Below are positions 23,112-37,746 of a stretch of DNA of 64,000 nucleotides, one piece after another. Under the pieces are notes generated by a model. The model did not search any database and was not told the DNA's origin. It saw only the letters and a list, made by a program, of their open reading frames with translations. Source of the stretch: an uncultured Verrucomicrobiae bacterium (GTDB lineage Bacteria > Verrucomicrobiota > Verrucomicrobiia > Limisphaerales > BOG-1460); contig CAVXEG010000017.1 of the NCBI GenBank assembly GCA_963760675.1, positions 200,515 to 264,514 of the forward strand. Reading direction: 5' to 3'. Position numbers and translations under genes: made by a program. Numbering within the stretch: the first letter of the stretch is position 1; every line of letters starts with the position of its first letter.

Positions 23112-23120
23112 ATTTATAAT

Positions 23121-23194: not shown

Positions 23195-23204
23195 ATCATT
23201 TCAT

Positions 23205-23280: not shown

Positions 23281-23286
23281 TTTCAT

Positions 23287-23364: not shown

Positions 23365-23369
23365 TTTCC

Positions 23370-23459: not shown

Positions 23460-23571
23460 ACCTTCGCTCGAAGCTTCAGCAAGAGCGAGGTTGCCGCGCC
23501 ATGGCGAAGCGAAGGCGGGCGCAGCTCGTCAAAATGCAAAAACTTCGAGCTTCGTCTCGGCGGCCATTTCT

Positions 23572-23647
23572 GGATCCGTAGCTCAATCAGCAGAGCGCCC
23601 CGTTGTCTGCGGGAGGGTTAAGGGTGCAATTCCCTTCGGGTCCGCCA
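23572..23647 (+). tRNA. tRNA-Asp(GTC)-like, D-loop AATCAGCA, T-loop TGCAATT
   Basis: Clean cloverleaf: ggatccg ta gctc..gagc, anticodon loop ttGTCtg, aaggg-tgcaatt-ccctt, cgggtcc g CCA. Confidence 0.6.
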
Positions 23648-23648
23648 T

Positions 23649-23723
23649 CAGCGCGTAGTGTAGAAGCAACATGCTCGGCTTGGGACCGAGCGATCGCAGG
23701 TGCAAATCCTGCCGCGCTGACCA
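23649..23723 (+). tRNA. tRNA-Pro(TGG)-like, T-loop TGCAAAT
   Basis: cagcgcg ta gtgt..acat g ctcgg cTTGGga ccgag .. gcagg tgcaaat cctgc cgcgctg a CCA. Confidence 0.6.
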
Positions 23724-23798: not shown

Positions 23799-26295
23799 CT
23801 ACTGCAATTTCCATTCGAGAATACCCCCGGAGAAGCGAGGCCTGAGTTGGACTTCGAGCCGCAGAGCCGTCGTTTCAATCGCATCAAACTCGACACGATT
23901 GAAACAATTCAAGAGCACACCGAATTCGCCACGCGGACTGACAGGTCTCCATTCGTCGCCGTCTCTGTAAAGCAGCCGCCACGAGTCGGGCACACGGCAA
24001 CTGCCGATGCCAGTATCGTCAAACCAATAAACGCTGACGGCTGCGACGCGTTTCGGAGAGTCGAAATCATATTGTGCCCATTCGGCAGTGCCGCGATGAT
24101 CCCACCAGGTGAGGCGAGGAATGTCTTGGTCGTTGGAACTGGCGGGGTCGAGCCCGTCGCACATGGCATTCACCGTATCATTCTCAAAACAATGCGAAGC
24201 GGTGGGCTTGTACGCGGCTGGCCTCGGCTGAGGCGTGACGACCCACTCGTGCGCTTCGGCAGTGGTGCTGACTGTGGGGAAGCACGAAATGCGGAGACGC
24301 GCCGCGCCCATCGGAATGAGCGTGATGTGCTCGACCGGCTCGTCGGATTTCGCCGGACTTGGCTGAAGTTTGCCGACCGCGTGCTGAGGCGGTCCAGCCT
24401 GCCATTGCGGGATCTTGCGCGCTTTGCGCCTTGATGCGATCGGTGCGGTGTCCGGCGTGAACGGTTGCGGCGGCAGGGGGCCGCTCCGGCGGCTGACGCT
24501 AAAGGATTTCGCCGGGTCACGCGCGTCGAGCACAAGACCGTAGTTCCAGGGCGAGTCAGGAAAAACTTCCCACTCAGGCCAGTTGGCGATTCGGTCGCCG
24601 TATTTCTGCCAGCGTTCCTTGATCGCCAGCGAGAAGCTCAGCGGGCCATAGTCCACGGACACGGCGTCTTTATTCTTTGCCCAGACGCGGACGGAGAACT
24701 TCATCGGCAATTGCAGTTCAATAGTATCATCGTTTTTCCAATCGCGGTTGACCACGATGAATGAGAGCGGCTTTGGTTTTCACTTCGCTGCTCTGGCCGT
24801 TGATCTTGACGATGCGGCATCTCGCACCAGCGCGGCACGCGCAGGTAGAGCGGGAAGGTCGACCGCTTTGGGCATGGCGAGCTTGAACGCGATCGTGTCG
24901 CTGAACGGATAATCGGTTTCTTCGGTGATCTTCACCGGCGTGCCGTCGCCGACCTTCGCGCTGACTTCGCTGGCGGCGTAGAGCGAGGCGCACAGGCCGT
25001 TGTCGGCCGTGGCCAGCCAGAGTTCCTCGGCGTAGTACGGCCAGCCGTGCGAGACGTTGTGCTGGCAGCAGCGATAGACCTCGAACGGGCTGTAGGAGAA
25101 CATCGTGCCGCCGTTCTGCGACTGCCGGGCGCTTTGTTGTCTCGGTCGAGTTGGACCTGGTTGGCGCAGGTCAGGTAGTGCAGGCCCTTCTGGTCCGGCG
25201 TCATGCGCGGCGGGGAAAGTGTTGAACGCGATCTCCTCGCAGCGGTCGGCCCAGAGCGGGTTGCCGGAGATCTTCGTCAGCATCTCGAAGCTGTGCATGA
25301 ACTCGACGATGCCGCAGGTCTCGAATGCCGCCGCGCGGGTCGGCGTAAGCCGGGCCGGCAATTCTCGTCGCCGGCGAAGCCGCCGCCGGGGAACTGGCCG
25401 TAGAGGTCCATGACCTGTCTGGTAATTGCTGCTCCGCGGAATCGAGGTCTCCGGCTTCGTGCGACTGCAGCCAATAGACCGCGCCGGTCGCGGAAGCCCT
25501 GGGCGATGTTCACGTTGTGCCAGTTGATGCACGCCCGTGGTCCCAGCGCTGCCATGTTCTCGTGGATCTTCTGCGCCAGCTCGAGCAGCCATGCTTCGCC
25601 GGTGCGGTTGTAGAGCCAGTAGACGCTTTCGATGTTGTCGCCGGCGCGAATCTTCGGCCAGTAGCCCTCGCCGAATGCGCTCGGCCGGGAGCTGCGTTCT
25701 CCCACTTGAAGTATCGCGTCATCAGGTCGAGCACGCGCGGGTCGCCGCTGAATTCGTAATAGGACTGCAGCACGTTCAGCATGACCATGTGCGGCCAGAG
25801 GTCGGGCTTGCCGTTGCAAGCGAAGTCAGCAGGTCGCGCGGGCCGAACCAGCCGTCCGCGCGCTGGGTGGCGAGCATCGGCTTCGATCCATTCTTCGCTT
25901 CGGCGATGATCGCCTCGTCCTTGCAGCACGTAGCCGAGGTCGCCGTAGCCTTTGAGCCAGTAAGGCAGTTCCTCCCAGCCGCGTTCGCCCTTGCCTTGCT
26001 TGTTGGCCCAGGCGCTGCCCTCGAAATTGAGCCAGGGCGAAATCTCCTTCAGCCGGCCGGTCATGCCGTCGCGCTCCAGCTCGAGCTGATGCCGCAGCCA
26101 GCCGCGCGGCGTGATGCTGCCGATGGGCAGTTTCACGAACGGACTGGGTTCGAGCGGCGCGCGGTTGCTGACGTAGAAAGCGTTTGACGCGTTCACAGGC
26201 GGTCCGTCCACAACGCTCAGTTGCATTTGCGCGGTCGTGTATTGCGCGTTGCAGGCCAAAACCAAAATTCCGTAAAGCAGGGGAAGCCTGTTCAT
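23799..26295 (-). CDS. Glycoside hydrolase family 127 (DUF1680, beta-L-arabinofuranosidase-like), multiple frame changes
   Basis: Signal peptide MNRLPLLYGILVLACNA at 26295. Fragments in ORFs 25510..26304, 25277..25819, 24780..25592, 23799..24755 (YRCCQHNVSHGWPYY, VSVYWFDDTGIGSCRVP). Confidence 0.6.
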
Positions 26296-26329
26296 GGCCT
26301 TCAAATTCTTCTATTTCGCAGGCATGTAC

Positions 26330-28605
26330 GTTGACGATGCCGACGTCAATGTATTGCCCGCCAGTCGTTTGGTGGCAGTGAACGGCGAGGACGTTATTCG
26401 TCGGCTGAAGCGCGGCGCTGGCTTCTGGGCTCATCGGCACCTCTTCGTATTCCGTGCTGTAACCGCCTACTTGAGCGGCGAGCGCACCGTTCACGTAGAT
26501 TTCCGCGTCTTCGTCATGGTGCAAACGCAACTGGAGTTGTCCATCGGCGGGCCGTGCGGCGTTGCAGATGCGGCGCAGCCAAATGTCGGACGTGTTCCAG
26601 ATCGTCCCGACATGCGCGCCGGGCGTGCCGCGGCTGCCGAAGCCAGCCGGACTATCGTGCCAGCCGCTGTCATCGAAGCCGGGCTTGAACCAGTCGTCAC
26701 CTGGTTTGATCGTTGTGTAGCGCCAGATGAAGGTTTCGTTCTCGGAGGTGGGCACGACGGATCTAATCACGGGTGCCGGAGGTGGCGCGGTGTAGAGACG
26801 CTTTGCCGCCGTGATGGCGAGCGGGTCCATTTTCACAAGCGCGCGGTCGTAAGTCATGAGGCCATTGACCTCGACTTCGACGTCCGTGGTTGGGTGTAAA
26901 CGGCGGCGGCCAGTCCGCGCGTGCCGGTCAACGGATGGAGCTTGCCGAGCAAATCGACGTAAGCGTCGGTGAGATCGGCGTTGTTGGTGAAGCTGCGATA
27001 ACCCCAGTTCTTCTCGTCCTGCCAGGTGTGCCCGCGAACGGGCAGGCCGAGCCCGCCGAATTCGCCCAGCACACCAGCGCGATTCCTTCCGGCGCGGGGG
27101 CGCCGGGACCGGGATAATTGTGGATGTCCATCACGTCGCCGGAACCGCGATCGGTCCAGCCGCTGGCGTCATCCACCAGCCGCGTGGGATCGAGTTGCTT
27201 GATGAGCTCGGCTAGCGCGGCGTTTCGTACTGGCCCCAGCCTTCGTTGAACGGCACCCACATGACGATGCATGGGTGATTGCAGCGTCCATTGATGAGCG
27301 CCTTGAGTTCCTGCTCATACTCCGCGGACGCGTCGTCGAGCGGCGGCGGTCAGTGCGGTTTCGCCGAAATTACCGCTGGGCATGTCCTGCCAGACGAGCA
27401 GGCCGAGCTTGTCGCACCAGTAATACCAGCGATCCGGCTCAACCTTCACGTGCTTGCGCGCCATGTTGAAGCCGAGCTTCTTCGTCATCTCGATGTCGTA
27501 GCGCAGGGCTTCGTCCGTGGGCGCCGTGTAAAGGCCGTCCGGCCAGAAGCCCTGATCGAGCGGGCCGAATTGGAAGAGGGCTTGTTATTCAGACACAGGC
27601 GGTGAAGCCCTCCTCGTCTTTGCCCAGGGAGATTTTGCGCATGCCGAAGTAGCTCGACTTCGTCGCGCAGCCTCCTTTGTCGTCAAAGACTTGACCAAGA
27701 GGTCATAGAGAAATGGCGAGTCCGGCGACCAGAGCTTTGCTGTGCCAACTCGAGTGTGACCTCGCCAGGAAATTTCGTGCCAGCGGCGGAAGCACGGTCG
27801 TATCGTACGCAAAATGACCTAGAACTCTTCTTGGATTTACCTTCGAGGATCGACACTTTTGCCTCAAACAGATTGTTGTCTTTGCCGGTTACGAGCGTGA
27901 AAGCCACCTTCACGGTGAATTCTCCAAGTCTGGTGTAATTCTGATATTCTCGACGTGCGCGTCGTCACCGGCTCCAACCACACCGTCTGCCAAATCCCGC
28001 TGGTGGGCGTGTACCAAATGCCGTCGGGCTTCCGCACCGCTTGCCGCGCGGTTGAGGGCCGGCGTCGCTCGGATCGAACACCGCCACGACGATTTCCTGT
28101 TCGCCCGAGGGCTTGAGCGCGTCGGTGATGTCGAAGCTGAAGCCATCGTAGCCGCCCTGATGCGAGCCGAGCTCCTTGCCGTTCACCCAGACCGTCGTTT
28201 CCCAATCCACGGCGCCGAAGTTCAGCAACACGCCTGGTTGCGCCAGCCACGCGCAATCGTGAACGTGCGCCGATACCAGAGCCGGTTCGTTTCGTACACC
28301 CGCTTCATCACGCCGGACAACGCGGACTCGATCGGGAACGGCACCAGGATTTGTCCATCCCAAGTCGCCGGTTGCGGGGCGTCTTTGCCGGTGATGGCGT
28401 ACTCCCACAGCCCGTTCAGATTCTGCCAATCCTCGCGGACCATTTGCGGCCGCGGGTATTCGGGATGGGCGTTTTTAGGTGAAACGTCCTTGGCCCAGCG
28501 CGTCATCAGCGGTCCTTTGGCGGGCTGCCAGTCTGCCGCAATAGACACCAAGGTGATGCTTGCTAATGCAATGGCAGCCAGGCACAGCCTTGAGCATTTG
28601 ACCAT
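26330..28605 (-). CDS. Glycoside hydrolase family 2 (beta-galactosidase/glucuronidase-like) with extra C-terminal sugar-binding-like domain, multiple frame changes
   Basis: Signal peptide [91 protein letters not shown] and DIHNYPGP, scattered over ORFs 28222..28701, 27965..28429, 26928..27272 and 25826..26857. Confidence 0.55.
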
Positions 28606-28733
28606 AGAGTCTTCATTGTCTATGCGTCCGTATCCGGCCTGCAAGCACTGATTCCATGTGAACCGTCTCAACTTACTCTGCTTCCTTGGTGCCACGGCCA
28701 AAGCGAAAACACAGGTCTATGATCATATCAAAT

Positions 28734-28810
28734 TGCTGCCGTGGTCGAATACATCAGGCATCCGCCTTCTAAGCGGAACGATGCAGGTGAAAATCCTGCC
28801 GGCAGGCGCC
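28734..28810 (+). tRNA. tRNA-like unit (T-arm gcagg-tgaaaat-cctgc, ends cgCCA), cloverleaf not fully resolved
   Basis: Abuts tRNA-Asn-like unit. Acceptor pairing imperfect. Confidence 0.3.
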
Positions 28811-28812
28811 AT

Positions 28813-28887
28813 TGCCAGGTAGTGTCAAAGTAGCACGGCGGCCTGTTAAGCCGTTCGGTGTTGGTGCGAGTCCAACCCTGGCAGCCA
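28813..28887 (+). tRNA. tRNA-Asn(GTT)-like, D-loop CAAAGTA, T-loop TGCGAGT
   Basis: tgccagg ta gtgt..gcac g gcggc ctGTTaa gccgt tcggt gttgg tgcgagt ccaac cctggca g CCA. Confidence 0.6.
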
Positions 28888-28891
28888 ATTT

Positions 28892-28967
28892 CAGGGTGTA
28901 ATGTCAGCAGCAGACGGCCTTGTTCGGAACGAGGAGGTCGCAGGTGCAACTCCTGCCACCCTGACCA
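28892..28967 (+). tRNA. tRNA-Pro(CGG)-like, T-loop TGCAACT
   Basis: Acceptor cagggtg/caccctg. Anticodon arm ccttg-ttCGGaa-cgagg. CCA 28965-28967. Confidence 0.55.
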
Positions 28968-28971
28968 TTTC

Positions 28972-29058
28972 GGATGGTTGGCAGAGCAGTAATGCCCCGG
29001 TCCCGAAAACCGAGTGAGCCTCCGGGCTGCGTGGGTGCAATCCCTACACCATCCGCCA
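28972..29058 (+). tRNA. tRNA-Ser(CGA)-like, class II with long variable arm (gagcc..gggctg), T-loop TGCAATC
   Basis: 87 nt. Acceptor ggatggt/accatcc. Loop ccCGAaa. Discriminator G, CCA. Confidence 0.55.
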
Positions 29059-29223
29059 CTTTTAAACCCTTAACGAAAGGAAATCCCATGAAGCCCATTC
29101 TCCGTTATCAAAGCCAATTGCTCTTTCGCCGGAGCTACAAACCAAATCGGTGATGCGAATCCGACCGTGACGTCGAACCTCGTGTTCCGCCCGGCCGATT
29201 CGGCGCGAAGCCGCAATTCAAAC

Positions 29224-29297
29224 TGTCTCGTAGCTCAAAAGCAGAGCATCCGGCTGATAACCGGAAGACCGCGGAGCGTTACCGCGCGGGACAACCA
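29224..29297 (+). tRNA. tRNA-Ile(GAT)-like, D-loop AAAAGCA, T-loop AGCGTTA
   Basis: tgtctcg ta gctc aaaagca gagc a tccgg ctGATaa ccgga agac cgcgg agcgtta ccgcg cgggaca a CCA. Confidence 0.6.
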
Positions 29298-29299
29298 AT

Positions 29300-29374
29300 C
29301 CCCGAGTAGCTGAGACAGATTAGCGCCTCCCTGAAGCCGAGGAGACGTTGGCGCGATACCAACCTCGGGGACCA
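29300..29374 (+). tRNA. tRNA-Phe(GAA)-like, T-loop CGCGATA
   Basis: Acceptor ccccgag/ctcgggg. Loop ctGAAgc. T-arm gttgg-cgcgata-ccaac. Confidence 0.5.
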
Positions 29375-29412
29375 CTCAAAACCCATCCCGCTTGGCGGGC
29401 ACAAAAGGAAAC

Positions 29413-30564
29413 ATGAACACCTTGACTGAAACTCAGGTGCGCCTTTTCGCCTCGGCCCAAAGCTGGATCGAAGGCGAAGCGGTGCGCCAACTCTATGCCA
29501 CCGCGAAACTCGACGGCGTCCGCCGCGCGGTCGGCTTCCCGGATTTGCATCCGGGCAAAGGCTCGCCCGTCGGTGCGGCGTTCGTGACCGAAGGCGTGAT
29601 CTACCCGCACCTCATCGGCGGCGACATCGGTTGCGGCATGGCGTTGTTCAAGACGGACCTCGTCCGTCGCGACGCCAAGCTCGATCGCTGGGCCAAGCTG
29701 CAGTTCAACCTCGAACACCCGTGGGATCAGTTCGTCAGCGACTTCCTCGCTGAACACGATCTCGAATCCACGGAGTTCGATTCGGCGCTCGGCACGATCG
29801 GCGGTGGCAATCACTTCGCCGAATTGCAGACGGTCGAGAAGGTGCTCGACGCCGACGAGTTCAAGAAACTTGGACCTCGGCAAGCAGCAACTCGTCGTGC
29901 TCGTTCACAGCGGCTCGCGTGGATTGGGTGAATCCATCCTGCGGGCTCATGTGGATCAGCACTTCGGCAACGGAGTCGAAGCGGATTCGTTCGCGGCGGA
30001 GGAATATCTCCGCGGTCACGACTTCGCAGTCCGCTGGGCCAAGGCAAATCGCGAACTCATCGCGCGTCGCTTCGTTGCGACGCTCGGTGCGGAAGCCGAA
30101 TGCCTCTGGGACGGCTGCCACAACAGCATCACCCGCCATGGAAGCTGGTTGGATTCACCGCAAAGGTGCAGTTGCTGCCGACGGTGACTTCGTCGTGATC
30201 CCGGGTTCACGCGGCTCGTTGAGCTATCTCGTGAAGCCGATCGGCGATGGCGAAAGTCACGCCTGGTCGCTGGCCCACGGTGCGGGTCGCAAGTGGGCGC
30301 GCAGCGATGCTCGTCAGCGCATGCGCGAACGCTTCGGCATGCACCAATTGGTGCAGACGCCGCTCGGCGGCCGCGTGATCTGCGAAGAGCGCGACTTGCT
30401 CTACGAAGAAGCACCCGCCGCCTACAAAAACATTGAGGCAGTGATCGCAGGACCTCGTTGCTGCCGGACTCGTGTCCGTCATCGCGACGTTGCGACCACT
30501 CCTCACTTACAAGACGCGCAAAGCTTCGCCGCTAACGCGTCCATCATCGCCACGGAGGAACTGA
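29413..30564 (+). CDS. rtcB: RtcB-family RNA 3'-phosphate/5'-OH ligase (short form, ~380 aa), spread over 3-4 frames
   Basis: PDLHPGKGSPVGA, GGDIGCGM, GTIGGGNHF, LVHSGSRGLG, HRKGA, IPGSRG, HGAGR. C-terminus QDLVAAGLVSVIATLRPLLTYKTR in a shifted frame. RBS aaaaggaaac before the ATG. Confidence 0.7.
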
Positions 30565-30633
30565 GTCCACAGAGTTAAGGTCTGCCCGCGAGCAGCGACT
30601 CTGGGTTCTCATCCTCTGCGGCAACCATTTTCT

Positions 30634-30711
30634 GTCCGTGAATGCAAAGCAGCTCGAGCAGCCGGTCTTTCAAGCCGGGCCTAGTCGGTGCGAGTCCGAT
30701 CACGGATGCCA
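30634..30711 (+). tRNA. tRNA-Glu(TTC)-like, T-loop TGCGAGT
   Basis: Acceptor gtccgtg/cacggat. Anticodon arm ccggt-ctTTCaa-gccgg. CCA 30709-30711. Confidence 0.5.
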
Positions 30712-30715
30712 TTTT

Positions 30716-30793
30716 GCTCTCAAGGTGTAATTAGTTCTGCACGCCGCTCTGCGAAGGCGGAGGTTCGTGGTGCAAATCCACGTGAGAGCGCCA
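30716..30793 (+). tRNA. tRNA-like unit, anticodon unresolved. T-loop TGCAAAT.
   Basis: Acceptor gctctca/tgagagc. D-arm gtgt..gcac. CCA 30791-30793 then GTTTC. Confidence 0.4.
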
Positions 30794-30801
30794 GTTTCAA
30801 A

Positions 30802-30877
30802 GCCCCCGTGCCTCAGCAGCTACAGGGCGAGTTTCGTAAACTCGTATTCGTCGGTGCGAGTCCGACCAGGGGCTCCA
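30802..30877 (+). tRNA. tRNA-Thr(CGT)-like, T-loop TGCGAGT
   Basis: Anticodon arm cgagt-ttCGTaa-actcg. T-arm gtcgg-tgcgagt-ccgac. CCA 30875-30877. Confidence 0.5.
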
Positions 30878-31246
30878 GTTTCAAATGGTGATCATGATGT
30901 AACAGCAGCATCACGCCCCGTGAAGGCGTTTGTGCCGGTGCGAATCCGGTTGGTCCTGCCCAATTTCAGAATTTGAATCAGCCAGCAGCCACTCCGGCAG
31001 TTCGCCGGAACGGTTCTGCGCATGAGCTGGTTCAATCGCGGTTCGAATCCGCACGTTGGCTGATAACCAACTCCATTGGCTGGAGACGGGAGAAATCCCA
31101 CCACGGTTCGGGGCAGCGAGACCGGCGCGCAAGCGCAGCCCGAAGGCGGCTTTGTGAGAATTGCGCTGAGCGATTCTCCCGCCGCCGGACGGTGGTCTGC
31201 TGCTCTCGGGCTTTCAATTTTCAACCAGCAAGAAAGGAGAACACTA

Positions 31247-32030
31247 TGAACTACGAAATCATCATCATCGCAATCGGCATCGCCATCTATCGGCATCGTC
31301 ATCGGTCTGCCGCAGTCTGCTTCAGAATTCCGCCGCGCGTTCCTCGTGCCGGAAGGTTACGCCGGCCTGCTCTACCACAAGGGCAAGTTCGTCGGAAGTC
31401 CTCCGCGCTGGCCGACACATCCGCTGGGGTCGCCACTTCACGCTCGACGTGCAGGACCTCCGCAAGACGTCGCTGCTCGTGGCCGGTCAGGAAGTCCTCA
31501 CGGCTGACAACGTCGGCCTCAAGATCAGCCTGCTCGTCACCTACCAGGTGACCGACCCGGTCAAGGCTGCGCACGAAACGCAGAACTGGCAGGGCGACCT
31601 CTACAACGCCGCCCAGCTCGCGCTGCGCGCGGTCGTGGGCGGGGTCGCCGTCGAAGCGCTGCTCGGTCAGCGACTCGAAATCGGCGCGCAACTGCTGGCC
31701 CGCGTGCAGCCGGAAGCCGCCAAGATCGGCATCAACGTCCTCGCGGTCGAAGTGAAGGACGTGATGTTCCCGGCCGACCTCAAGCGCGCCTTCGCCGACG
31801 TGCTGAAGGCGAAGCAGGAAGGCCAGGCCGCGCTCGAACGCGCCCGCGGCGAAAGCGCCTCGCTGCGCAATCTCGCCAACGCGGCTCGTGTGCTGGAAGG
31901 CAATCCGGCGTTGATGAACCTGCGTCTGATGCAGTCGCTCTCGGCTGCGCAGAACGCGGGCAACACGCTCGTGCTCGGCATGCCCGGCGGCTTCGTGCCG
32001 TTGAAGAACGGCAAGCCAAGTTCGCCTGAA
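31247..32030 (+). CDS. SPFH/Band-7 (stomatin/prohibitin/HflC-like) membrane protein, N-terminal region in 3 frames
   Basis: TM N-terminus MNYEIIIIAIGIAIY. EFRRAFLVPEGYAGLLYHKGKFV. SPFH core in ORF 31449.. (LVAGQEVLTADNVGLKISLLVTYQV ... LAVEVKDVMFPADLKRAFADVLKAKQEGQAALERARGE). RBS aaaggaga. Confidence 0.6.
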
Positions 32031-32062
32031 CACAGGCCGAGGACGGAGCAAGTTAAACAACG

Positions 32063-32090
32063 CGGGCGGAGGCGAAAGCTTCCGCCCGCA
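32063..32090 (+). terminator. Hairpin gcgggcggaggcgaaagcttccgcccgc. Identical second copy at 32833-32863.
   Basis: Perfect 10-bp GC stem. The apparent in-frame read-through of the Band7 ORF across it has low GC3 and is treated as non-coding. Confidence 0.45.
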
Positions 32091-32147
32091 CTTTACAACG
32101 AATATTCAAACAACAAGAAACATGAAACCAATTACTTGAGAACAGTT

Positions 32148-32772
32148 ATGAAAAAAAATCAAGGCAAGGCCTCCGCCGATTTCCGTGTGGAGGTCCGGTC
32201 TTGGGGAAACTACGTCGAGCGAATCGCCGAGCTTGAAGCGAGCGCTCGCGAAGAAACCCACGAACGCTTCAAATCGAAATCGTCGGTGACGGGTGAAATC
32301 CCGGCGGACAGCGGCGTTGCGATTCCGCTCGGCATTGATGGAACGCTCACCGAGGACGCGGATTGTCACCAACGCGCGTTCCAGCCTGCAAGGCGGCTCG
32401 GTGCTGCTCTGGTTGCTGGGCGACACCGGACATTCGCGACGACGCGCGGCTCTATTTCCGTCGCACCACGTTGTCCGAGGACGACGAGGTGCCGGAGAAT
32501 GGAGCTGGGAGGACGACGAACCGAAGTATCGGGATTCGTATTCCGCGATTGATCCGGACGAAGGCGATTACGCGCGAGTGCTGCAACTCATCAATGAGTT
32601 CCTGCCGGTCAAGGAAATGGCCGGGCGACTCATCGGTGTGCCGGTGCTGCGGCAATTCGGTCTCATCGAAAACGAGAAGGTGGACAGTTTCCTGGCCACT
32701 GTGCTTTCGAAAAGCTCAGAGCCGAGCGAACGCCGTGAACGCAACGAATCAACAGCGTGTTGCGACGCGTGA
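32148..32772 (+). CDS. Hypothetical protein (~205 aa), frame change near 32400
   Basis: MKKNQGKASADFRVEVRSWGNYVERIAELEASAREE... continues in ORF 32293..32772 (EDDEPKYRDSYSAIDPDEGDYARVLQLINEFLPVKEMAGRLIGVPVLRQFGLIEN). Flanked by identical hairpins. Confidence 0.4.
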
Positions 32773-32832
32773 AAGCCCGCGCACGACAGATCGCAGATAA
32801 TCAGTTCAAGGACGCCAAGAGGCAGACAACAG

Positions 32833-32863
32833 TGCGGGCGGAGGCGAAAGCTTCCGCCCGCAC
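32833..32863 (+). terminator. Second copy of hairpin gtgcgggcggaggcgaaagcttccgcccgcac, followed by TTCAATTTC
   Basis: Identical to 32063-32090. Confidence 0.45.
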
Positions 32864-32874
32864 TTCAATTTCAT

Positions 32875-32949
32875 ATCCCGTTGGCCGAGCAGCTCAGGCG
32901 GCGGCCTGCAAAGCCGCAGAGGCTGGTGCGATTCCAGCACGGGATTCCA
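32875..32949 (+). tRNA. tRNA-Cys(GCA)-like, T-loop TGCGATT
   Basis: atcccgt tg .. gcggc ctGCAaa gccgc agag gctgg tgcgatt ccagc acgggat t CCA. Confidence 0.6.
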
Positions 32950-32955
32950 TTTCTT

Positions 32956-33030
32956 CGGGCATAGGTGTTGAGAGACACACGCCGGTCTTCCAAACCGGAG
33001 TACAGGGCGCGCTACCCTCATGCCCGTCCA
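32956..33030 (+). tRNA. tRNA-Gly(TCC)-like, T-loop CGCGCTA
   Basis: Acceptor cgggcat/atgcccg. D-stem gtgt/acac. Anticodon arm ccggt-ctTCCaa-accgg. Confidence 0.55.
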
Positions 33031-33032
33031 TT

Positions 33033-33117
33033 TCCCAAGTGAATCGGGTGCGTCGGCAGAGACCCCGCACGGTCGAAGTAATGGCCGGACACCCGATTCG
33101 GTGCGCTTGGGATTCCA
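33033..33117 (+). tRNA. tRNA-like unit, unresolved (85 nt)
   Basis: Ends ttgggat t CCA tttt. Internal pairing ambiguous. Confidence 0.3.
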
Positions 33118-33126
33118 TTTTCCGCG

Positions 33127-33199
33127 ACGCGAAATCCCGGTGTCGATCAGAACTTCACAGATCTGGCCGCGGTGGTTCAACTCCGCCTTCGTGTCGCGC
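33127..33199 (+). tRNA. tRNA-like unit with a canonical T-arm (ggtgg-TTCAACT-ccgcc) and no encoded CCA. The exception in the array.
   Basis: Acceptor acgcgaa/ttcgtgt. Anticodon arm unresolved. Confidence 0.3.
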
Positions 33200-33201
33200 T
33201 T

Positions 33202-33276
33202 GGGTTGCAAACTTTGACAGTGAAGTCCCGGCTCTTAACCGGCGAGAACTCGGTGCGAATCCGAGGCAACCCACCA
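33202..33276 (+). tRNA. tRNA-Lys(CTT)-like, T-loop TGCGAAT
   Basis: Acceptor gggttgc/gcaaccc. D-stem actt/aagt. Loop ctCTTaa. T-arm ctcgg-tgcgaat-ccgag. Confidence 0.55.
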
Positions 33277-33281
33277 TTTCC

Positions 33282-33357
33282 GCATCCGTGGTGAAATTAT
33301 TATCATCCTCCGCTTCGAACGGAGAGTTTGCAGGTGGGAGTCCTGCCGGATGCACCA
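33282..33357 (+). tRNA. tRNA-Arg(TCG)-like, T-loop TGGGAGT. Same anticodon as the host tRNA at the island boundary.
   Basis: gcatccg tg gtga..tcat c ctccg ctTCGaa cggag agttt gcagg tgggagt cctgc cggatgc a CCA. Confidence 0.55.
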
Positions 33358-33363
33358 ATTTAC

Positions 33364-33445
33364 GGGCATGTGGTTAACCCAATAGCAGAGGGTCCAGACT
33401 CAGAATCTGGCAGCCTTGGGGGTGCAAGTCCCTTCACGCCCACCA
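33364..33445 (+). tRNA. tRNA-like, anticodon loop ctCAGaa (Leu CAG-like), 82 nt
   Basis: Anticodon arm ccaga-ctcagaa-tctgg. T-loop TGCAAGT. Acceptor with one mismatch. Confidence 0.4.
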
Positions 33446-33449
33446 TTTC

Positions 33450-33532
33450 GCCCACGTGGCTCCAACGGAACAGCAGACCCGGCGCACTTAAAACGCGCAC
33501 AGTTCGGGTGCAAGTCCGACCGTGGGCACCGA
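33450..33532 (+). tRNA. tRNA-like, anticodon unresolved (possible TAA). Ends in CCG rather than CCA.
   Basis: Acceptor gcccacg/cgtgggc. T-loop TGCAAGT. Confidence 0.3.
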
Positions 33533-33615
33533 CCGGCGTGTAGCCCAATCGGAACAGCAGACCGGTTCCGCTCAAACCGGAAAGGTTGCAGGTGCAAGTC
33601 CTGCCACGCGGACCA
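33533..33615 (+). tRNA. tRNA-like, anticodon loop ctCAAac (Leu CAA-like)
   Basis: Anticodon arm ttccg-ctcaaac-cggaa. T-arm gcagg-tgcaagt-cctgc. CCA 33613-33615. Confidence 0.4.
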
Positions 33616-33619
33616 ATTT

Positions 33620-33707
33620 GGAATGTCCACCGGTCAAGCGCGCCGGGCCTCGGTGCTAACGAGTGCGTGCCTTCGGGCAAGTGGTGCAAGTCCACGGCAT
33701 TCCGCCA
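33620..33707 (+). tRNA. tRNA-Ser(GCT)-like, class II (88 nt, long variable arm), T-loop TGCAAGT
   Basis: Acceptor ggaatgt/gcattcc. Loop gtGCTaa. Variable arm tgcc..ggca. Discriminator G, CCA. Confidence 0.5.
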
Positions 33708-33712
33708 TTCAT

Positions 33713-33804
33713 GCGCGCGTAGCTCAAAGAGAGCCGGCGGCTTTATACCCCGCATCGCACTAGATCAGTGCCGGGATCCGGAGCGTTACCGGACGCGCGT
33801 ACCA
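33713..33804 (+). tRNA. tRNA-like, 92 nt. Anticodon loop region gctttatacc reads as TAT (Ile AUA) or TTA (ochre suppressor) depending on register. T-loop AGCGTTA.
   Basis: Acceptor gcgcgcg/cgcgcgt. ta gctc..gagc D-arm. Anticodon stem imperfect. Confidence 0.35.
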
Positions 33805-33808
33805 TTTT

Positions 33809-33884
33809 GTCCCCATAGCTCAAAACACAGAGCGGGCGCGTCCTAAGCGTCAGGTTGTCGGTGAGAGTCCGGCTGGGGACACCA
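33809..33884 (+). tRNA. tRNA-Arg(CCT)-like, T-loop TGAGAGT
   Basis: gtcccca ta gctc aaaacaca gagc g ggcgc gtCCTaa gcgtc aggtt gtcgg tgagagt ccggc tggggac a CCA. Confidence 0.6.
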
Positions 33885-33890
33885 ATTTCT

Positions 33891-33964
33891 GCGGGTGTGG
33901 TTCAACAGCAGAATGCGGCCGTGCCAAGGCCGAGACGACGGTGCGACTCCGTTCACCCGCTCCA
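33891..33964 (+). tRNA. tRNA-Gly(GCC)-like, T-loop TGCGACT
   Basis: Anticodon arm cggcc-gtGCCaa-ggccg. T-arm gacgg-tgcgact-ccgtt. Acceptor gcgggtg/cacccgc. Confidence 0.6.
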
Positions 33965-33969
33965 ATTTC

Positions 33970-34044
33970 GGGGGCGTAGCTCATCAGCAGAGCGCTCGTT
34001 TGACATGCGAGAGGCAAAGAGGGCAGCACTCTTCGCTCCCACCA
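33970..34044 (+). tRNA. tRNA-Val(GAC)-like, D-loop ATCAGCA, T-loop GGCAGCA
   Basis: gggggcg ta gctc atcagca gagc g ctcgt ttGACat gcgag aggca aagag ggcagca ctctt cgctccc a CCA. Confidence 0.6.
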
Positions 34045-34050
34045 TTTTCC

Positions 34051-34127
34051 GAGGGCATAGCTCAGCCAGTCAGAGCGGATGCTTCACATGCATCAGGTCG
34101 AAGGCGCGAATCCTTCTGCCCTCACCA
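34051..34127 (+). tRNA. tRNA-Val(CAC)-like, T-loop CGCGAAT
   Basis: gagggca ta gctc agccagtca gagc g gatgc ttCACat gcatc aggtc gaagg cgcgaat ccttc tgccctc a CCA. Confidence 0.65.
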
Positions 34128-34132
34128 TTTCT

Positions 34133-34210
34133 GTCCCTGTGGTGTAGTCCAGTCAACATGCCTGCCTCTCATGCAGGAGATCACCGGAGCGAAGCCGGTC
34201 AGGGACGCCA
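34133..34210 (+). tRNA. tRNA-Glu(CTC)-like, T-loop AGCGAAG
   Basis: Acceptor gtccctg/cagggac. Anticodon arm cctgc-ctCTCat-gcagg. T-arm accgg-agcgaag-ccggt. Confidence 0.6.
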
Positions 34211-34219
34211 ATTTCAATT

Positions 34220-34294
34220 GCCCTCAAAGCATTGTCAGCGATGCATTCGCTCGGTAAGCGAATCAGCTCGGTGCAATTCCGAGTGAGGGCTCCA
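34220..34294 (+). tRNA. tRNA-Thr(GGT)-like (anticodon loop tcGGTaa with C33), T-loop TGCAATT
   Basis: gccctca aa gcat tgtcagcg atgc a ttcgc tcggtaa gcgaa .. ctcgg tgcaatt ccgag tgagggc t CCA. Confidence 0.5.
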
Positions 34295-34297
34295 TTT

Positions 34298-34369
34298 CGC
34301 AGTCGAGCCAGCGCTCAAGTGGGTTTCATAAGCCCGCTGTGTCCGGGGCAGCACCGGAGACTGCGACCA
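34298..34369 (+). tRNA. tRNA-like with apparent 9-nt anticodon loop (tttCATaag), T-loop GGCAGCA
   Basis: Acceptor cgcagtc/gactgcg. T-arm tccgg-ggcagca-ccgga. Confidence 0.35.
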
Positions 34370-34374
34370 TTTCC

Positions 34375-34446
34375 GCCTCCATGCAGCAGCCTGCGGATTT
34401 CTTTTGTAAAGAATTCCTGCCGGAGCATCACCGGCTGGAGGCTCCA
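34375..34446 (+). tRNA. tRNA-like (72 nt), anticodon unresolved. T-loop AGCATCA.
   Basis: Acceptor gcctcca/tggaggc. T-arm gccgg-agcatca-ccggc. Confidence 0.35.
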
Positions 34447-34454
34447 TTCCATTT

Positions 34455-34529
34455 GCTCGCGTAGCCCAATGCAGAGGCACGACGTCGAGAACGTCGCCAG
34501 TGCAGGTGCAAGTCCTGCCGCGAGCACCA
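34455..34529 (+). tRNA. tRNA-like, anticodon loop tcGAGaa (GAG, Leu-type anticodon but short variable arm), T-loop TGCAAGT
   Basis: Acceptor gctcgcg/cgcgagc. Anticodon stem cgacg/cgtcg. Confidence 0.4.
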
Positions 34530-34536
34530 ATTTCAA

Positions 34537-34617
34537 GGAGTCGAAGCACAAAGCAGACCGGCACCGGACTTTTAATCCGTGAACATGGTGAGGTTGCAAC
34601 TACCTCCGGCTCCACCA
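34537..34617 (+). tRNA. tRNA-like (81 nt), anticodon region imperfect (possible TTT). T-loop TGCAACT.
   Basis: Acceptor ggagtcg/cggctcc. T-arm gaggt-tgcaact-acctc. Confidence 0.35.
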
Positions 34618-34623
34618 ATTCAT

Positions 34624-34698
34624 TGCCGGGTCGTCTAATCAGTAGGACACCGCCCTTTGAAGGCGACGGTGATGGTGCGAATCCATCCCCGGCAGCCA
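34624..34698 (+). tRNA. tRNA-Gln(TTG)-like, D-loop AATCAGTA, T-loop TGCGAAT
   Basis: tgccggg tc gtct aatcagta ggac a ccgcc ctTTGaa ggcga cggt gatgg tgcgaat ccatc cccggca g CCA. Confidence 0.55.
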
Positions 34699-34716
34699 AT
34701 TCAGTCGAGCTTCGAC

Positions 34717-34790
34717 CGCTCGGTGGTGAAATAGCATCACGTCTGGCCTACACCCAGAAATCGAGGGGGCAGAACCTTCCCGGGCGACCA
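34717..34790 (+). tRNA. tRNA-Val(TAC)-like (loop ccTACac, C33), T-loop GGCAGAA
   Basis: Acceptor cgctcgg/ccgggcg. D-arm gtga-aatagca-tcac. Anticodon stem tctgg/ccaga. Confidence 0.45.
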
Positions 34791-34797
34791 ATTCCAT

Positions 34798-34873
34798 TGC
34801 CTCGTGTGCATAATCAGCAGTGCGCCGGTCTCTGACACCGGAGAGTCTGGAGCAAAACCAGGCGAGGCAGCCA
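34798..34873 (+). tRNA. tRNA-Gln(CTG)-like, T-loop AGCAAAA
   Basis: Acceptor tgcctcg/cgaggca. Anticodon arm ccggt-ctCTGac-accgg. T-arm tctgg-agcaaaa-ccagg. Confidence 0.5.
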
Positions 34874-34944: not shown

Positions 34945-35529
34945 ATGAGCGACATACTGAACAAGACGATTGTGCTGGTGCTCAACCGCAACTGGCAGGC
35001 GATCAACATTCGCACGCCGCAGGACGCGTTCTGCCAGATGGCCACGAACGTGGCCACCGCGCTGGAGATCGAAGGCGAGAACCACATCCGTCCCGTCACG
35101 TGGGACGAGTGGATCACGCTGCCGATTCGCGAGGGCGACAACGCCGTGCGCACCGCGCGCGGCGCGATCCGCGTGCCGACGGTGATTGTGGCGGTGAACT
35201 TCGCCAAGGTGCCGAAGAAGCGCCCGAAGCTCTGCGCCAAGACGATTCGCGAGCGCGACGGCAACCGCTGCCAATACACGGGCAAGTTGCTGAAGCCGGA
35301 CGAAGGCAGCCTCGACCACGTCCTGCCCCGCTCGCGCGGCGGCGCGGACACGTGGGAAAACCTCGTGTGGTCGAGCAAGGACGTGAACACCCGCAAGGGC
35401 AACCGCCTGCCGCACGAAGCCGGCCTGAAGCTGCTCAGCGTCCCGCGCGCGCCGAAGGAACTGCCGGTGACGGCGCTCATCCGCAACGCCCACGGCGTCG
35501 CCGAGTGGAAACTGTTCCTGAATGAATGA
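34945..35529 (+). CDS. HNH endonuclease
   Basis: CQYTGKLLKPDEGSLDHVLPRSRGGADTWENLVWSSKDVNTRKGNR (HNH core with Zn-binding Cys/His). Starts at MSDILNKTIVLVLNRNW. Directly 3' of the tRNA array. Confidence 0.75.
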   Translation: MSDILNKTIVLVLNRNWQAINIRTPQDAFCQMATNVATALEIEGENHIRPVTWDEWITLPIREGDNAVRTARGAIRVPTVIVAVNFAKVPKKRPKLCAKTIRERDGNRCQYTGKLLKPDEGSLDHVLPRSRGGADTWENLVWSSKDVNTRKGNRLPHEAGLKLLSVPRAPKELPVTALIRNAHGVAEWKLFLNE

Positions 35530-36345: not shown

Positions 36346-37746
36346 ACACCAAAGATTTTCTCCGTCTCGGCGTGCCGCTCGGTGAAGCCACGCGGCGCGC
36401 GACGGATTTTGTTGCGCAATTCATCTTGCGCGGCGGCGACACGGCGAAGTTGGAAGAGGAAGTCAAAGCCATCGTCGCCAATCCCGGCGTTGTTCGCCGA
36501 AGATCCGTTGCGCAAGGAATTCGCAAAAGCCGTTGCCAATTCGCCTCCGCCACCGCGCGCCGAACCGGTGAAGTATCGGCAATGGGGCGAAGGGCTCGAA
36601 CACGACGCGGTGATGCAGATGGAGAAGGCGTGCCTGTTGCCGGTGTCGGTGGCGGGCGCGCTGATGCCGGACGCGCACGTGGGCTACGGCCTGCCCATCG
36701 GCGGCGTGCTGGCCACGGAGAACGCGGTCATTCCTTACGCCGTCGGCGTGGACATCGCGTGCCGCATGAAGATGACGGTGCTGGATATTCCGGTGCGCGA
36801 CCTGGAGCAAAAGCAGGATCGGCTCACGCGCGCCATCGAAGCGGAGACGCGCTTCGGCATCGGCGCCAACTTCAAGCAACGCCGCGAGCATGAGGTGATG
36901 GACGCGGATTGGTCGGTCAGCGCCGTGACGCAGCAGAACAAGGACCGGGCGTGGTCGCAACTCGGCACGAGCGGCAGCGGAAATCATTTCGTCGAGTTCG
37001 GTTTGTTCACGGCGCAAGCAAGAGATCAACGGATCTTGCCAGCCGGGAACTTACGTGGCGTTGCTGTCGCACAGCGGCAGTCGCGGCACGGGCGCGGCGG
37101 TGTGCGATCATTACAGCAAGCTGGCGTTTGGCCAGCGTCGCGGATCTTGCCGAACGAATTGCTCCGGCTCGCGTGGCTGTCGCTCGATTCGCAGGAAGGC
37201 CAGGAATACTGGAACGCGATGGAGTTGATGGGCCAATACGCGGCGGCGAACCACGCGTGCATTCACCAGCACATCGCGGAGAATCTCGGCGCGCAGGTGC
37301 TGCTCGATTTGGAGAACCATCACAACTTCGCGTGGAAGGAGAAGCACGTCATTGACGGCGTGGAACGCGAAGTGGTCGTTCATCGCAAAGGCGCGACGCC
37401 GGCGGGCAAGGGCGTGCTCGGAATCATTCCCGGCTCGATGGCATCGCCGGGATTTGTCGTGAGCGGCAAAGGAAATCCGGAATCGCTCGAACTCGGCGTC
37501 GCACGGCGCGGGCCGCGCGATGAGCCGCAAAGCCGCGAACGAGAAATTCAATTGGAAGGACGTGAACCGTTTTCTCAAGCGAGCGAGGCGTGACGCTCAT
37601 CAGCGCCGGCCTCGACGAAGTGCCGATGGCTTACAAAAACATCCGCGAAGTGATGGCCGCGCAGAGCGACCTGGTCGACGGTGCTCGGCGAGTTCGATCC
37701 CAAGCTCGTGAAGATGGCGCCGAGCGGCGAGCGGCCGGAGGATTGA
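36342..37746 (+). CDS. rtcB: RtcB-family RNA ligase (long form, ~465 aa, N-terminal extension), frame changes near 36480 and 37500
   Basis: MPDAHVGYGLPIGGV, GVDIACRMKM, GTSGSGNHF, HRKGATPA, IIPGSMASPGFVV. C-terminal VTLISAGLDEVPMAYKNIREVMAAQSDLV in a shifted frame. Confidence 0.7.

Follow-up and report, generated by a model that had tools for sequence, protein, structure and literature searches.

Do the tRNA genes packed into a stretch of an uncultured Verrucomicrobiae genome share an elbow, the junction of D-loop and T-loop, that differs from the usual one, and if so, which contact has changed? G18 and U55/pseudouridine 55 (Psi55) are among the most conserved nucleotides known. We analyzed a window of 64,000 nucleotides (nt) of contig CAVXEG010000017.1, numbered from its first letter, in which a first-pass annotation had described a dense tRNA array at 28813-34873 with G55 in essentially all units, G18 retained, and C or U at position 19. 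The array was confirmed, and its extent proved larger: we identified 39 confident tRNA units, all on the plus strand, with 32 in a main block starting at 28735 (28735-34873) and 7 in a second block at 23037-23723. As we read the sequences, the shared change is G18 to A18 together with U55 to G55, the G19-C56 pair being kept and the C or U falling at position 20. Long mobile tRNA arrays and phage tRNA clusters are of an already known kind, and what is new is a uniform, covarying A18/G55 elbow.

Units were read from the encoded CCA back through the acceptor strand, the 5-bp T-stem, and the 7-nt T-loop. The encoded CCA, followed by (A)TTTC, ends nearly every unit. With this anchoring, position 55 was G in 39/39 confident units and U55 appeared in none, so the T-loop register had not been misassigned. 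Position 56 was C in 35/39 units; C56 had been said to be invariant, which failed for the units starting at 23287 (T), 28735 (A), 33282 (G), and 33809 (A). Position 57 was a purine in 39/39 units and position 58 was A in 28/39, with position 54 being T in 24, A in 7, G in 4, and C in 4. The array D-loops follow the pattern A-N-(N)-A-G-Y-A, and as previously noted, none has G-G at the 18-19 site. Relative to the conserved elbow set of G18, G19, U54, U55, C56, and A58, the array lacks G18 and U55 in 39/39 units and retains G19 and C56 in 35-36 of 39. The anticodon loops are 7 nt long, and the anticodons of the 39 units together cover all 20 amino acids.

Standard gene finders recovered only part of this set. 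ARAGORN called 15/39 units, and Rfam called 20 with default filters and 25 with permissive filters, these 25 scoring 30.7-62.1 bits against the RF00005 tRNA family gathering score of 29. The other 14 units were recovered only by an array-trained covariance model or by hand; we trained this model on 25 array units, and it picks up most of the remainder. Tandem pairs of the T-arm motif GGTGCRANTCC occurred 8 times in the window versus 0.00 expected from shuffles. We obtained no tRNA fold for the CCA-ended segments 23460-23566, 30540-30627, and 33036-33117, plus 29100-29223. With 22 units in one orientation within 32875-34873 (2.0 kb), the locus is a long tRNA array as published, with at least 20 tRNA genes at a density of at least 2 per kb (PMC4758250; termed an L-array in PMC8421152).

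The assignment of the D-loop change to position 18 rather than 19 depends on homologues. If these are ignored, the raw A-G-C/U-A sequence can be numbered as the first-pass annotation had it, with G18 kept, a pyrimidine at 19, and shifted or swapped D-loop/T-loop pairs giving a distinct elbow, and in the Rfam alignment the G falls in the G19 or the G18 column at lowered posterior probability. We assign the change to position 18 because alignment of canonical D-loops with their variant homologues matches AATGGTA to AATAGTA and AACGGCAG to AACAGCAG; these length-matched loops differ only at the first G, giving A18 and a kept G19 with C/U at 20. Under this numbering, 19-56 is G-C in more than 600 public tRNAs, and base 19 changes when base 56 does. 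The alternative would oppose C19 to C56 and G18 to G55, neither of which is a plausible pair, and we find this wiring hardly credible.

Covariation of the two loops was very strong in independent public loci. Our sample contained about 3,000 tRNAs from 360 loci, composed of a viral set from an IMG/VR scan for two adjacent GGTGCRANTCC T-arms (at least 120 loci, on contigs of up to 200-480 kb), a genome set with three such adjacent T-arms from one genome per GTDB species (at least 120 loci), and a control set of viral loci selected on canonical TTC loops (at least 120 loci). Cloverleafs were parsed by a script blind to D-loop and T-loop identity, yielding 1,057 viral and 1,291 genomic tRNAs, and 18-55 was scored by contingency tables, A-G being outside the standard pairs. 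Here and below, counts from public loci are those among the matches listed. Across the pooled viral and genome loci, 1,285 tRNAs combined an AG D-loop with G55, 653 combined GG with U55, and 40 were discordant. Counting all loop lengths, the viral loci contained 452 AG/G55, 439 GG/U55, 12 GG/G55, and 8 AG/U55 tRNAs, and the genome loci 833, 214, 17, and 3 in the same order (Fisher p ~1e-233 and ~1e-200, values that overstate independence because the sequences are related). Within the viral set, GG was found in the D-loop of 440/455 U55 tRNAs and AG without GG in that of 402/477 G55 tRNAs, the most frequent D-loops being AATGGTA with U55 and AATAGTA with G55. For viral 7-nt D-loops, in which numbering is unambiguous, (N18,N55) was (A,G) in 176, (G,U) in 143, (G,G) in 4, and (A,U) in 3 tRNAs, and 19-56 was G-C in 309; a second tally of 7-nt D-loop cases gave 310. 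The control loci contained 636 GG/U55, 13 AG/G55 (~2% of tRNAs), and 0 GG/G55 tRNAs.

Because many viral arrays are mixed, canonical tRNAs can be set beside variant ones inside one locus. The clearest evidence was in Myxococcota arrays, which provided near-identical tRNA-Leu(CAG/GAG) genes with 3-4 differences over 58 compared positions, a comparison that omits the D-loop, the variable loop, and position 55; one such pair sets AACAGCAG with TGCAACT against AACGGAAG with TTCGAAT, and across these genes AACAGCAG goes with TGCAA and AACGGAAG or AACGGCAG with TTCGA. These findings uphold the earlier suggestion of a coordinated, internally consistent change in both loops and replace its register-shifted or swapped pair with A18-G55 in place of G18-U55, G19-C56 being kept. 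Yeast SUP4oc tolerated no single mutation in any of the pairs G18-U55, G19-C56, and U54-A58 (PMC4117946), which fits a need for positions 18 and 55 to change together.

The A18/G55 elbow occurs in hundreds of independent assemblies, isolate genomes among them. Genome-set matches were mostly from Verrucomicrobiota, Planctomycetota, and Myxococcota, with isolates such as Geminisphaera colitermitum TAV2, and the class is abundant in IMG/VR contigs, including those of 200-480 kb. Parsing gave 18 G55 tRNAs in G. colitermitum TAV2 (locus L226) and 9 G55 units in Verrucomicrobium sp. BvORR034 (L204); Opitutaceae bacterium EW11 (L183) matched the T-arm pattern, but its 8-kb stretch yielded no parsed G55 unit. 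Syntenic arrays at 80-93% identity were found in several Verrucomicrobiota metagenome-assembled genomes (MAGs). The G55 class in public loci contains all isotypes; position 54 was T in 1,012, A in 142, G in 140, and C in 121 of its members from the pattern-ascertained loci, and 1,012 T54-G55 loops across all loci read TGCRANT. Queried by BLAST against 50,697 phage records, part of the array gave weak single-tRNA matches only and no cultured-phage relative, and the T4-like Klebsiella phage that we examined has canonical elbows. The elbow had been taken as specific to this array; it does differ from that of the host tRNA in the window, and it belongs to a class widespread in mobile arrays and phages. 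We found no description of this class in open-access papers and preprints, an earlier description being possible, and the array surveys and the phage-tRNA escape paper contain no discussion of T-loops or D-loops.

If the units were decaying pseudogenes or artefacts of an error-prone assembly, their odd positions would be meaningless. Many protein genes in the window are broken across frames (e.g., 29413-30578, 31247-32060, and 23799-28701 on the minus strand), with RtcB, SPFH, and glycoside hydrolase genes frameshifted, some tRNA units end in CCG or contain an added nucleotide, and ARAGORN recognizes just 15 of the 39. The first RtcB gene is intact in the related locus L237, which suggests long-read indel errors or recent decay in the window, and the single-nucleotide oddities of some tRNA units may have the same cause. 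Against such an origin of the elbow, the change of U55 to G is a substitution rather than an indel in 39/39 units, the host tRNA in the window is canonical, and the hundreds of independent assemblies, isolates included, share the elbow. The stems also show compensatory evolution: in 86 comparisons of window units with their closest same-anticodon relatives, we counted 88 compensatory double and 86 wobble-preserving single changes in stems, 16 disruptive single changes, and 0 disruptive double changes, and G55 was retained in 85/86 comparisons. This pattern argues for functional tRNAs, and we give decay or artefact as the source of the elbow next to no weight. Homopolymer collapse of GG to G was considered separately and ruled out, as the change at 55 replaces one base by another, GG and TT are both intact in the host tRNA, and the pattern recurs in isolates and in Illumina MAGs.

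A third elbow variant seems to occur in tRNA-Arg, judging from the sequences, with U19-A56 or U19-G56 substituting for G19-C56. The array tRNA-Arg units at 28735-28811, 33282-33357, and 33809-33884 have A56 or G56, and G19 is gone with U in its place; this joint loss of C56 and G19 fits a maintained 19-56 pair. Typical pairs in the window and related loci are the D-loop AATTATTA with T-loop TGGGAGT and AATGTATA with CGAAAGT.

How might such an elbow be built? T-loops outside tRNA mostly read UGNRA or YGNRA, with tRNA as the exception in having U at position 2, and positions 4 and 5 of riboswitch T-loops are separated by an intercalated adenosine, which is contributed by a distant loop and joined to the sugar edge of G2 through two hydrogen bonds (10.1101/2022.12.26.521914). 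The array has Y-G-N-R-A at 54-58 (T/C54, G55, R57, and A58) in 28/39 units, the other 11 having A54 or G54, mostly with T58 or G58. Like the UGNRA/YGNRA motifs of flavin mononucleotide (FMN) and cobalamin riboswitches, the array T-loops (U54-G55-C56-R57-A58) possess G2, a purine at 4, A5, and a candidate intercalating adenosine, A18. Unlike these motifs, which dock onto receptor loops, the array T-loops would dock within a tRNA, and C56 at loop position 3 would additionally be Watson-Crick paired with G19 in what we infer to be tRNA geometry. Since UGNRA with an intercalating adenosine is usual in riboswitches, the array elbow probably supports a normal L shape, built the other way. We propose that the D-loop/T-loop lock has been rebuilt with A18 for G18 and G55 for U55, that the T-loop folds as a UGNRA type with the adenosine between 57 and 58 bonded to the sugar edge of G55 (loop position 2), and that with the outer-face G19-C56 pair retained, the molecule would keep its normal L shape and elbow face. 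Because G19-C56 is kept, the outer elbow face, which most partners read, is probably unchanged, and no orthogonality toward RNase P, the ribosome, or the CCA enzyme is expected.

Positions 54-58 vary in set combinations, which are A54 with T58 (AGCGTTA and AGCATTA), G54 with G58 (GGCAGCA and GGCAGTA), and C54 with A58 or C58. Examples in the window are at 29224-29297 (AGCGTTA), 33970-34044 (GGCAGCA), and 29300-29374 (CGCGATA).

From sequence and analogy, we consider it probable that the locus is a mobile long tRNA array with an A18-G55 elbow of the UGNRA type whose tRNAs are expressed, charged, and translating. The available evidence on the array tRNAs points to ordinary tRNA function. The EF-Tu-contacting pairs 49-65, 50-64, and 51-63 include on average 1.94 G-C pairs of 3 in array-type tRNAs and 1.68 in canonical tRNAs of the same loci. 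A precedent exists in the trn operon of Anabaena PCC 7120, which resembles the window array in having dozens of dense, same-strand, supernumerary tRNAs on a mobile element with an adjoining HNH gene and RtcB nearby (PMC8421152; PMC4758250). The trn operon differs in being almost wholly canonical (TTC and GG), whereas the window array is G55 throughout; our expectation that it would be of the G55 type failed, with tRNA-Ile(GAU) (D-loop AAAAGTG and T-loop GGCAGTA) its sole A18/G55-type member. This tRNA-Ile(GAU) is reported to be aminoacylated in vivo and to migrate oddly, and the trn operon tRNAs tested are reported in polysomes (PMC8421152). The papers cited for this operon do not mention T-loop or D-loop deviations (PMC8421152; PMC4758250).

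A second precedent came from the genome scan for G55 arrays, which also returned Staphylococcus petrasii (L142) and Staphylococcus nepalensis (L218). The S. petrasii locus contains tandem tRNA-Gly genes (L142 3990-4200, minus strand) with D-loop ...CUUAGA and T-loop UGCAAGU, and these genes are the nonproteinogenic tRNA-Gly that serve as cell-wall pentaglycine donors. Staphylococcal tRNAs of this kind are described as devoid of G18-G19, U55, pseudouridine, and 5-methyluridine (m5U) and as kept out of translation by weak EF-Tu determinants (PMC13443448). They are the only described tRNAs that we found with an A-G/G55 elbow, and they show that cells process and charge tRNAs having an elbow of this type. 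The array tRNAs resemble them in the U54-G55-C56-A57-A58 T-loop and in A-G for G-G in the D-loop. The staphylococcal tRNA-Gly differ in forming one chromosomal isotype with a shortened anticodon loop, a nonribosomal role, and A-U, U-A, and A-U at 49-65, 50-64, and 51-63, whereas the array has all isotypes and GC-rich T-stems. Thus, U54-G55-C56 and the loss of G18-G19 are shared with the staphylococcal type, and the weak T-stem and short anticodon loop are not.

This likeness raises the idea that the array tRNAs are aminoacyl donors for nonribosomal reactions in cell wall, lipid, or peptide synthesis, since the S. petrasii tRNA-Gly with a ...CUUAGA/UGCAAGU type of elbow are excluded from translation (PMC13443448). 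We judge this very unlikely. The staphylococcal exclusion is attributed to weak EF-Tu pairs, and the array averages 1.94 G-C at those three positions; about 40 anticodons for 20 amino acids match no known nonribosomal use, and we saw no Fem-type or other aminoacyl-transferase gene in the island that carries the array.

Another alternative is that the array tRNAs do little decoding and act as decoys or sponges for tRNA-cleaving toxins and defense nucleases, with RtcB resealing them. Two RtcB ligase genes lie in or beside the array, and a sponge role for array tRNAs has been raised (PMC8421152). Deviant anticodon loops also fit decoys: among related genome arrays (L122-L241), C33 in place of the near-universal U33 occurs in 142/810 G55 tRNAs and 17/239 U55 tRNAs, and phage tRNAs are reported to evade anticodon nucleases by loop mutations (PMC10264068). 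Phage tRNA clusters (T4-like, T5-like, and jumbo) are similar to the window array in being clustered on mobile DNA and deviating from host tRNAs at important positions (PMC10264068; PMC11555353), but their described escape mutations are in the anticodon loop and the T4-like phage examined has canonical elbows. A decoy should resemble its target, and the most conserved positions are where the array tRNAs depart from those of the host. Moreover, full isotype coverage, a G3:U70-compatible acceptor in tRNA-Ala, encoded CCA, and GC-rich EF-Tu pairs fit substrates for charging and decoding, and Anabaena array tRNAs are charged and present in polysomes (PMC8421152). We therefore regard a decoy role as unlikely and retain translation as the favored function of the array tRNAs.

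What might a cell or mobile element gain from these tRNAs? The loss of U55 removes the TruB substrate, leaving no Psi55, so that the escape from TruB foreseen by the first-pass annotation holds. With the loss of G18, the site of 2'-O-methylguanosine 18 (Gm18) is gone, and by analogy with the staphylococcal tRNAs, m5U54 may be missing too. The CdiA-CT E479 toxin cuts the T-loop between the conserved T and Psi (PMC9086364), and a protective role of the elbow against T-loop-directed enzymes is conceivable. We propose that the tRNAs, expressed and charged, would serve translation as a reserve or stress pool and might benefit from independence of elbow-modifying enzymes or from resistance to T-Psi-C-loop nucleases. 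A stronger form of this proposal is a separate, self-sufficient tRNA pool, borne by phages and mobile islands, that folds without Psi55, Gm18, or m5U54 and goes unseen by, or resists, host and competitor factors acting as readers or cutters of the T-Psi-C loop such as CdiA-CT E479, which we hold to be possible though doubtful. If it were true, translation could be maintained or taken over while the canonical tRNAs of the host are attacked, and the pool would constitute natural tRNA orthogonality at the level of the elbow. The testable hypothesis that this offers is that mobile elements shield their tRNA supply from T-loop-directed enzymes.

Several considerations weigh against a translating array with a UGNRA-type elbow. 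The A18-G55 geometry is drawn from sequence and analogy, and the covariation counts represent sequences rather than independent events, from loci picked by T-loop pattern. Descent within one array lineage could by itself account for the shared elbow, which would then be neutral and have no adaptive meaning. Frameshifted genes in the window raise a concern about sequence quality or decay, and C33, extra nucleotides, irregular acceptor ends, and short-armed tRNA-Leu could indicate reduced or altered function. Finally, the Anabaena precedent is one tRNA of the G54/G58 subclass that is aberrant in acid gels, and the Staphylococcus tRNA-Gly with U54-G55-C56 and an A-G D-loop take no part in translation (PMC13443448).

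A natural class that swaps G18 and U55 in complete isoacceptor sets would represent a second viable solution for the tRNA elbow and provides a clean natural covariation for a tertiary contact. Because standard finders under-call its units, the tRNA content of phages, Verrucomicrobiota, Planctomycetota, and Myxococcota is probably underestimated, and public genomes likely contain more such arrays than their annotations show. As scaffolds that cannot receive, and should not need, the usual elbow modifications, such tRNAs are of interest for cell-free translation and engineered orthogonal tRNAs.

The array is carried by an island integrated into the host tRNA-Arg(TCG) gene (50734-50810, minus strand). 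This host gene, detected by ARAGORN, Rfam (71.9 bits), and alignment, is canonical as reported earlier, with G18 G19, T54 T55 C56, and a D-loop with TTGG, GGTTCAAGTCC. A 62-nt direct repeat bounds the island: the left (att) copy at 12329-12390 consists of the 3' 46 nt of tRNA-Arg(TCG) plus 16 nt, with 100% identity, and the right copy at 50718-50779 overlaps the 3' part of the intact host gene. The repeat spacing of 38,389 defines a 38.4-kb island containing both tRNA blocks, and a covariance model matched a tRNA 3' half at its left end (12345-12434, minus strand). Near this end, a 236-amino-acid (aa) open reading frame (ORF) on the plus strand (14297-15007) encodes a tyrosine recombinase/integrase (Pfam Phage_integrase, E=6.5e-17), the residues ahead of 62 being unmatched in Pfam. 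With these repeats and the integrase, and with related arrays in several phyla and viral contigs, the array is supernumerary and horizontally acquired. The other island content includes an Mrr-type nuclease, an extracytoplasmic function (ECF) sigma/anti-sigma pair, glycoside hydrolase genes, and an IS110 transposase; Pfam and ORF scans of the island revealed no recognizable phage structural genes.

Genes adjoining the array, all on the plus strand, match those of published long arrays, in which an HNH family is reported to be conserved beside the array with rtcB nearby. Immediately downstream of the array is an HNH endonuclease gene (34948-35529; Pfam HNH_4/HNH_5/HNH) whose product is 43% identical (E=7e-21) to the HNH protein of pCC7120delta, which lies beside the Anabaena trn operon. 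Array loci with an HNH homologue numbered 49 in the genome set and 14 in the viral set, and ~27 genome loci had RtcB homologues. The first RtcB RNA ligase gene of the window (29413-30578) is split over reading frames, with Pfam RtcB on both fragments; its L237 orthologue (277-1479) is an intact 400-aa ORF with 85% DNA identity that exceeds the NF007153 and TIGR03073 (release_rtcB) cutoffs, scoring 440 bits against 272 for TIGR03073. The subfamily is named for release factor H coupling, and no adjoining prfH-like gene was noticed. The second RtcB gene (36382-37593; Pfam RtcB, E=3e-52), probably frameshifted near its 3' end, has 85-88% DNA identity to copies in L146 and L139. A frameshifted SPFH/Band 7 gene lies inside the array (31247-32060, with ATG at 31247; Pfam Band_7, E=4e-25 on 31449-32057). 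Our model is that the 38.4-kb island in tRNA-Arg(TCG) carries a horizontally mobile array of 39 tRNA genes that is most likely cotranscribed, that the adjoining RtcB ligases would assist by RNA repair, and that the adjoining HNH endonuclease would spread the array, as proposed for published arrays.

We describe the individual units by how they were detected. ARAGORN, Rfam, and our own covariance model all recovered tRNA-Asp(GTC) at 23572-23647 (D-loop AATCAGCA, T-loop TGCAATT), tRNA-Pro(TGG) at 23649-23723 (AGAAGCA, TGCAAAT), and tRNA-Ser(CGA) at 28972-29058, which has a long variable arm, C33, and T-loop TGCAATC. ARAGORN and Rfam detected tRNA-Asn(GTT) at 28813-28887 (CAAAGTA, TGCGAGT), tRNA-Ile(GAT) at 29224-29297 (D-loop AAAAGCA), tRNA-Thr(CGT) at 30802-30877 (AGCAGCTA, TGCGAGT), tRNA-Cys(GCA) at 32875-32949 (AGCAGCTC, TGCGATT), tRNA-Arg(TCG) at 33282-33357 (AATTATTA with U at 19; TGGGAGT with G55 and G56), tRNA-Arg(CCT) at 33809-33884 (AAAACACA without G19; TGAGAGT with G55 and A56), tRNA-Gly(GCC) at 33891-33964 (AACAGCA, TGCGACT), tRNA-Val(CAC) at 34051-34127 (AGCCAGTCA, CGCGAAT), tRNA-Glu(CTC) at 34133-34210 (AGTCCAGTCA, AGCGAAG), tRNA-Leu(GAG) at 34455-34529 (D region CAATGCAGA, T-loop TGCAAGT), and tRNA-Gln(TTG) at 34624-34698 (AATCAGTA, TGCGAAT). 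ARAGORN and our model detected tRNA-Thr(GGT) at 34220-34294 (TGTCAGCG, TGCAATT).

Rfam and our model recovered tRNA-Ala(TGC) at 23205-23280 (33.3 bits; AAAAGTG; AGCGTTA with A54 G55 ... T58), whose acceptor is G3:U70 compatible with one additional nucleotide in the 3' strand, and tRNA-Arg(TCT) at 28735-28811 (AATACATC without G19; TGAAAAT with G55 and A56). By the same two methods we found tRNA-Pro(CGG) at 28892-28967 (AGCAGCA, TGCAACT) with a 3-nt connector past the acceptor stem, tRNA-Phe(GAA) at 29300-29374 (D-loop AGACAGAT), tRNA-Arg(GCG) at 30716-30793 (AATTAGTTCT, TGCAAAT), tRNA-His(GTG) at 30888-30962 (AACAGCA, TGCGAAT) with C33 and an irregular acceptor end, tRNA-Leu(CAG) at 33364-33445 (27.2 bits; 82 nt; TGCAAGT) with a short variable loop and extra nucleotides in the D region, tRNA-Leu(CAA) at 33534-33615 (82 nt; TGCAAGT), tRNA-Val(GAC) at 33970-34044 (D-loop ATCAGCA), tRNA-Lys(TTT) at 34537-34617 (31.7 bits; 81 nt; TGCAACT), tRNA-Val(TAC) at 34717-34790 (39.3 bits; C33; AATAGCA, GGCAGAA), and tRNA-Gln(CTG) at 34798-34873 (37.8 bits; AATCAGCA, AGCAAAA).

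Our model with CCA anchoring provided tRNA-Gly(GCC) at 23037-23111 (AACAGCCA; CGCAACT with G55), tRNA-Trp(CCA) at 23121-23194 (CAGCTT; GGCAGCA with G54 G55 ... G58), tRNA-Met(CAT) at 23287-23364 (T-loop TGTGATT with G55 and T56), tRNA-Glu(TTC) at 30634-30711 (T-loop TGCGAGT), tRNA-Gly(TCC) at 32956-33030 (TGAGAGAC, CGCGCTA), and tRNA-Lys(CTT) at 33202-33276 (TGACAGTG, TGCGAAT). The model, with CCA anchoring, also gave a unit at 33712-33804 with a long variable region, T-loop AGCGTTA, and TAT (Ile) as the most likely anticodon reading, and two 72-nt units, tRNA-Met(CAT) at 34298-34369 with the 4-nt D-loop CAGC and T-loop GGCAGCA, and tRNA-Thr(TGT) at 34375-34446 with D-loop CAGC, T-loop AGCATCA, and an extended anticodon stem. 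The model with CCA-end reading yielded an 82-nt tRNA-Leu(TAA)-like unit at 33450-33531, with T-loop TGCAAGT plus one G and a 3' end of CCG rather than CCA (decay or sequence error). A tRNA-Tyr(GTA)-like unit at 23370-23459 with a long variable region and T-loop AGCGTTA was recognized from a weak covariance-model match, fold, and manual reading, and tRNA-Ser(GCT) at 33620-33707 with a long variable arm and T-loop TGCAAGT from its cloverleaf fold.

Several units deviate outside the elbow. C33 is present in the units at 28972-29058, 30888-30962, 34717-34790, and 23037-23111, with anticodon loops CCCGAAA, CCGTGAA, CCTACAC, and TCGCCAG, and in related genome arrays it recurs for Glu(TTC), His(GTG), Ile(GAT), and Val(TAC). 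The tRNA-Leu(GAG) at 34455-34529 has a 5-nt variable loop in place of a long variable arm, and in genome loci, this arm is missing in 49/61 G55-type tRNA-Leu (e.g., in L127, L129, L131, L149, and L220). The three 82-nt Leu units at 33364-33445, 33450-33531, and 33534-33615 and the 81-nt tRNA-Lys(TTT) have added D-region nucleotides (...CGGAACAGCAGACC...).

Two further plus-strand elements, identified by fold, have canonical T-loops. One canonical-loop unit had been reported at 33127-33199; its TTCAACT loop is present in an element at 33124-33201, which is not a confident tRNA, having a 10-bp terminal helix, no CCA, UCA in the anticodon-loop region, and a weak resemblance to tRNA-Sec (Rfam 19.3 bits against a gathering score of 47). 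It is also not the only such element: a tRNA-like element at 30972-31072 with an 8-bp terminal helix and AACCA end has a TTCGAAT loop, and it falls within stretches that align at 78-86% with loci L143, L202, L128, and L238. Finally, a GC-rich hairpin, GCGGGCGGAGGCGAAAGCTTCCGCCCGC, occurs in two copies that are 95% identical, at 32056-32093 after the SPFH gene and at 32828-32865 after the next ORF, and these hairpins look like terminators inside the array.

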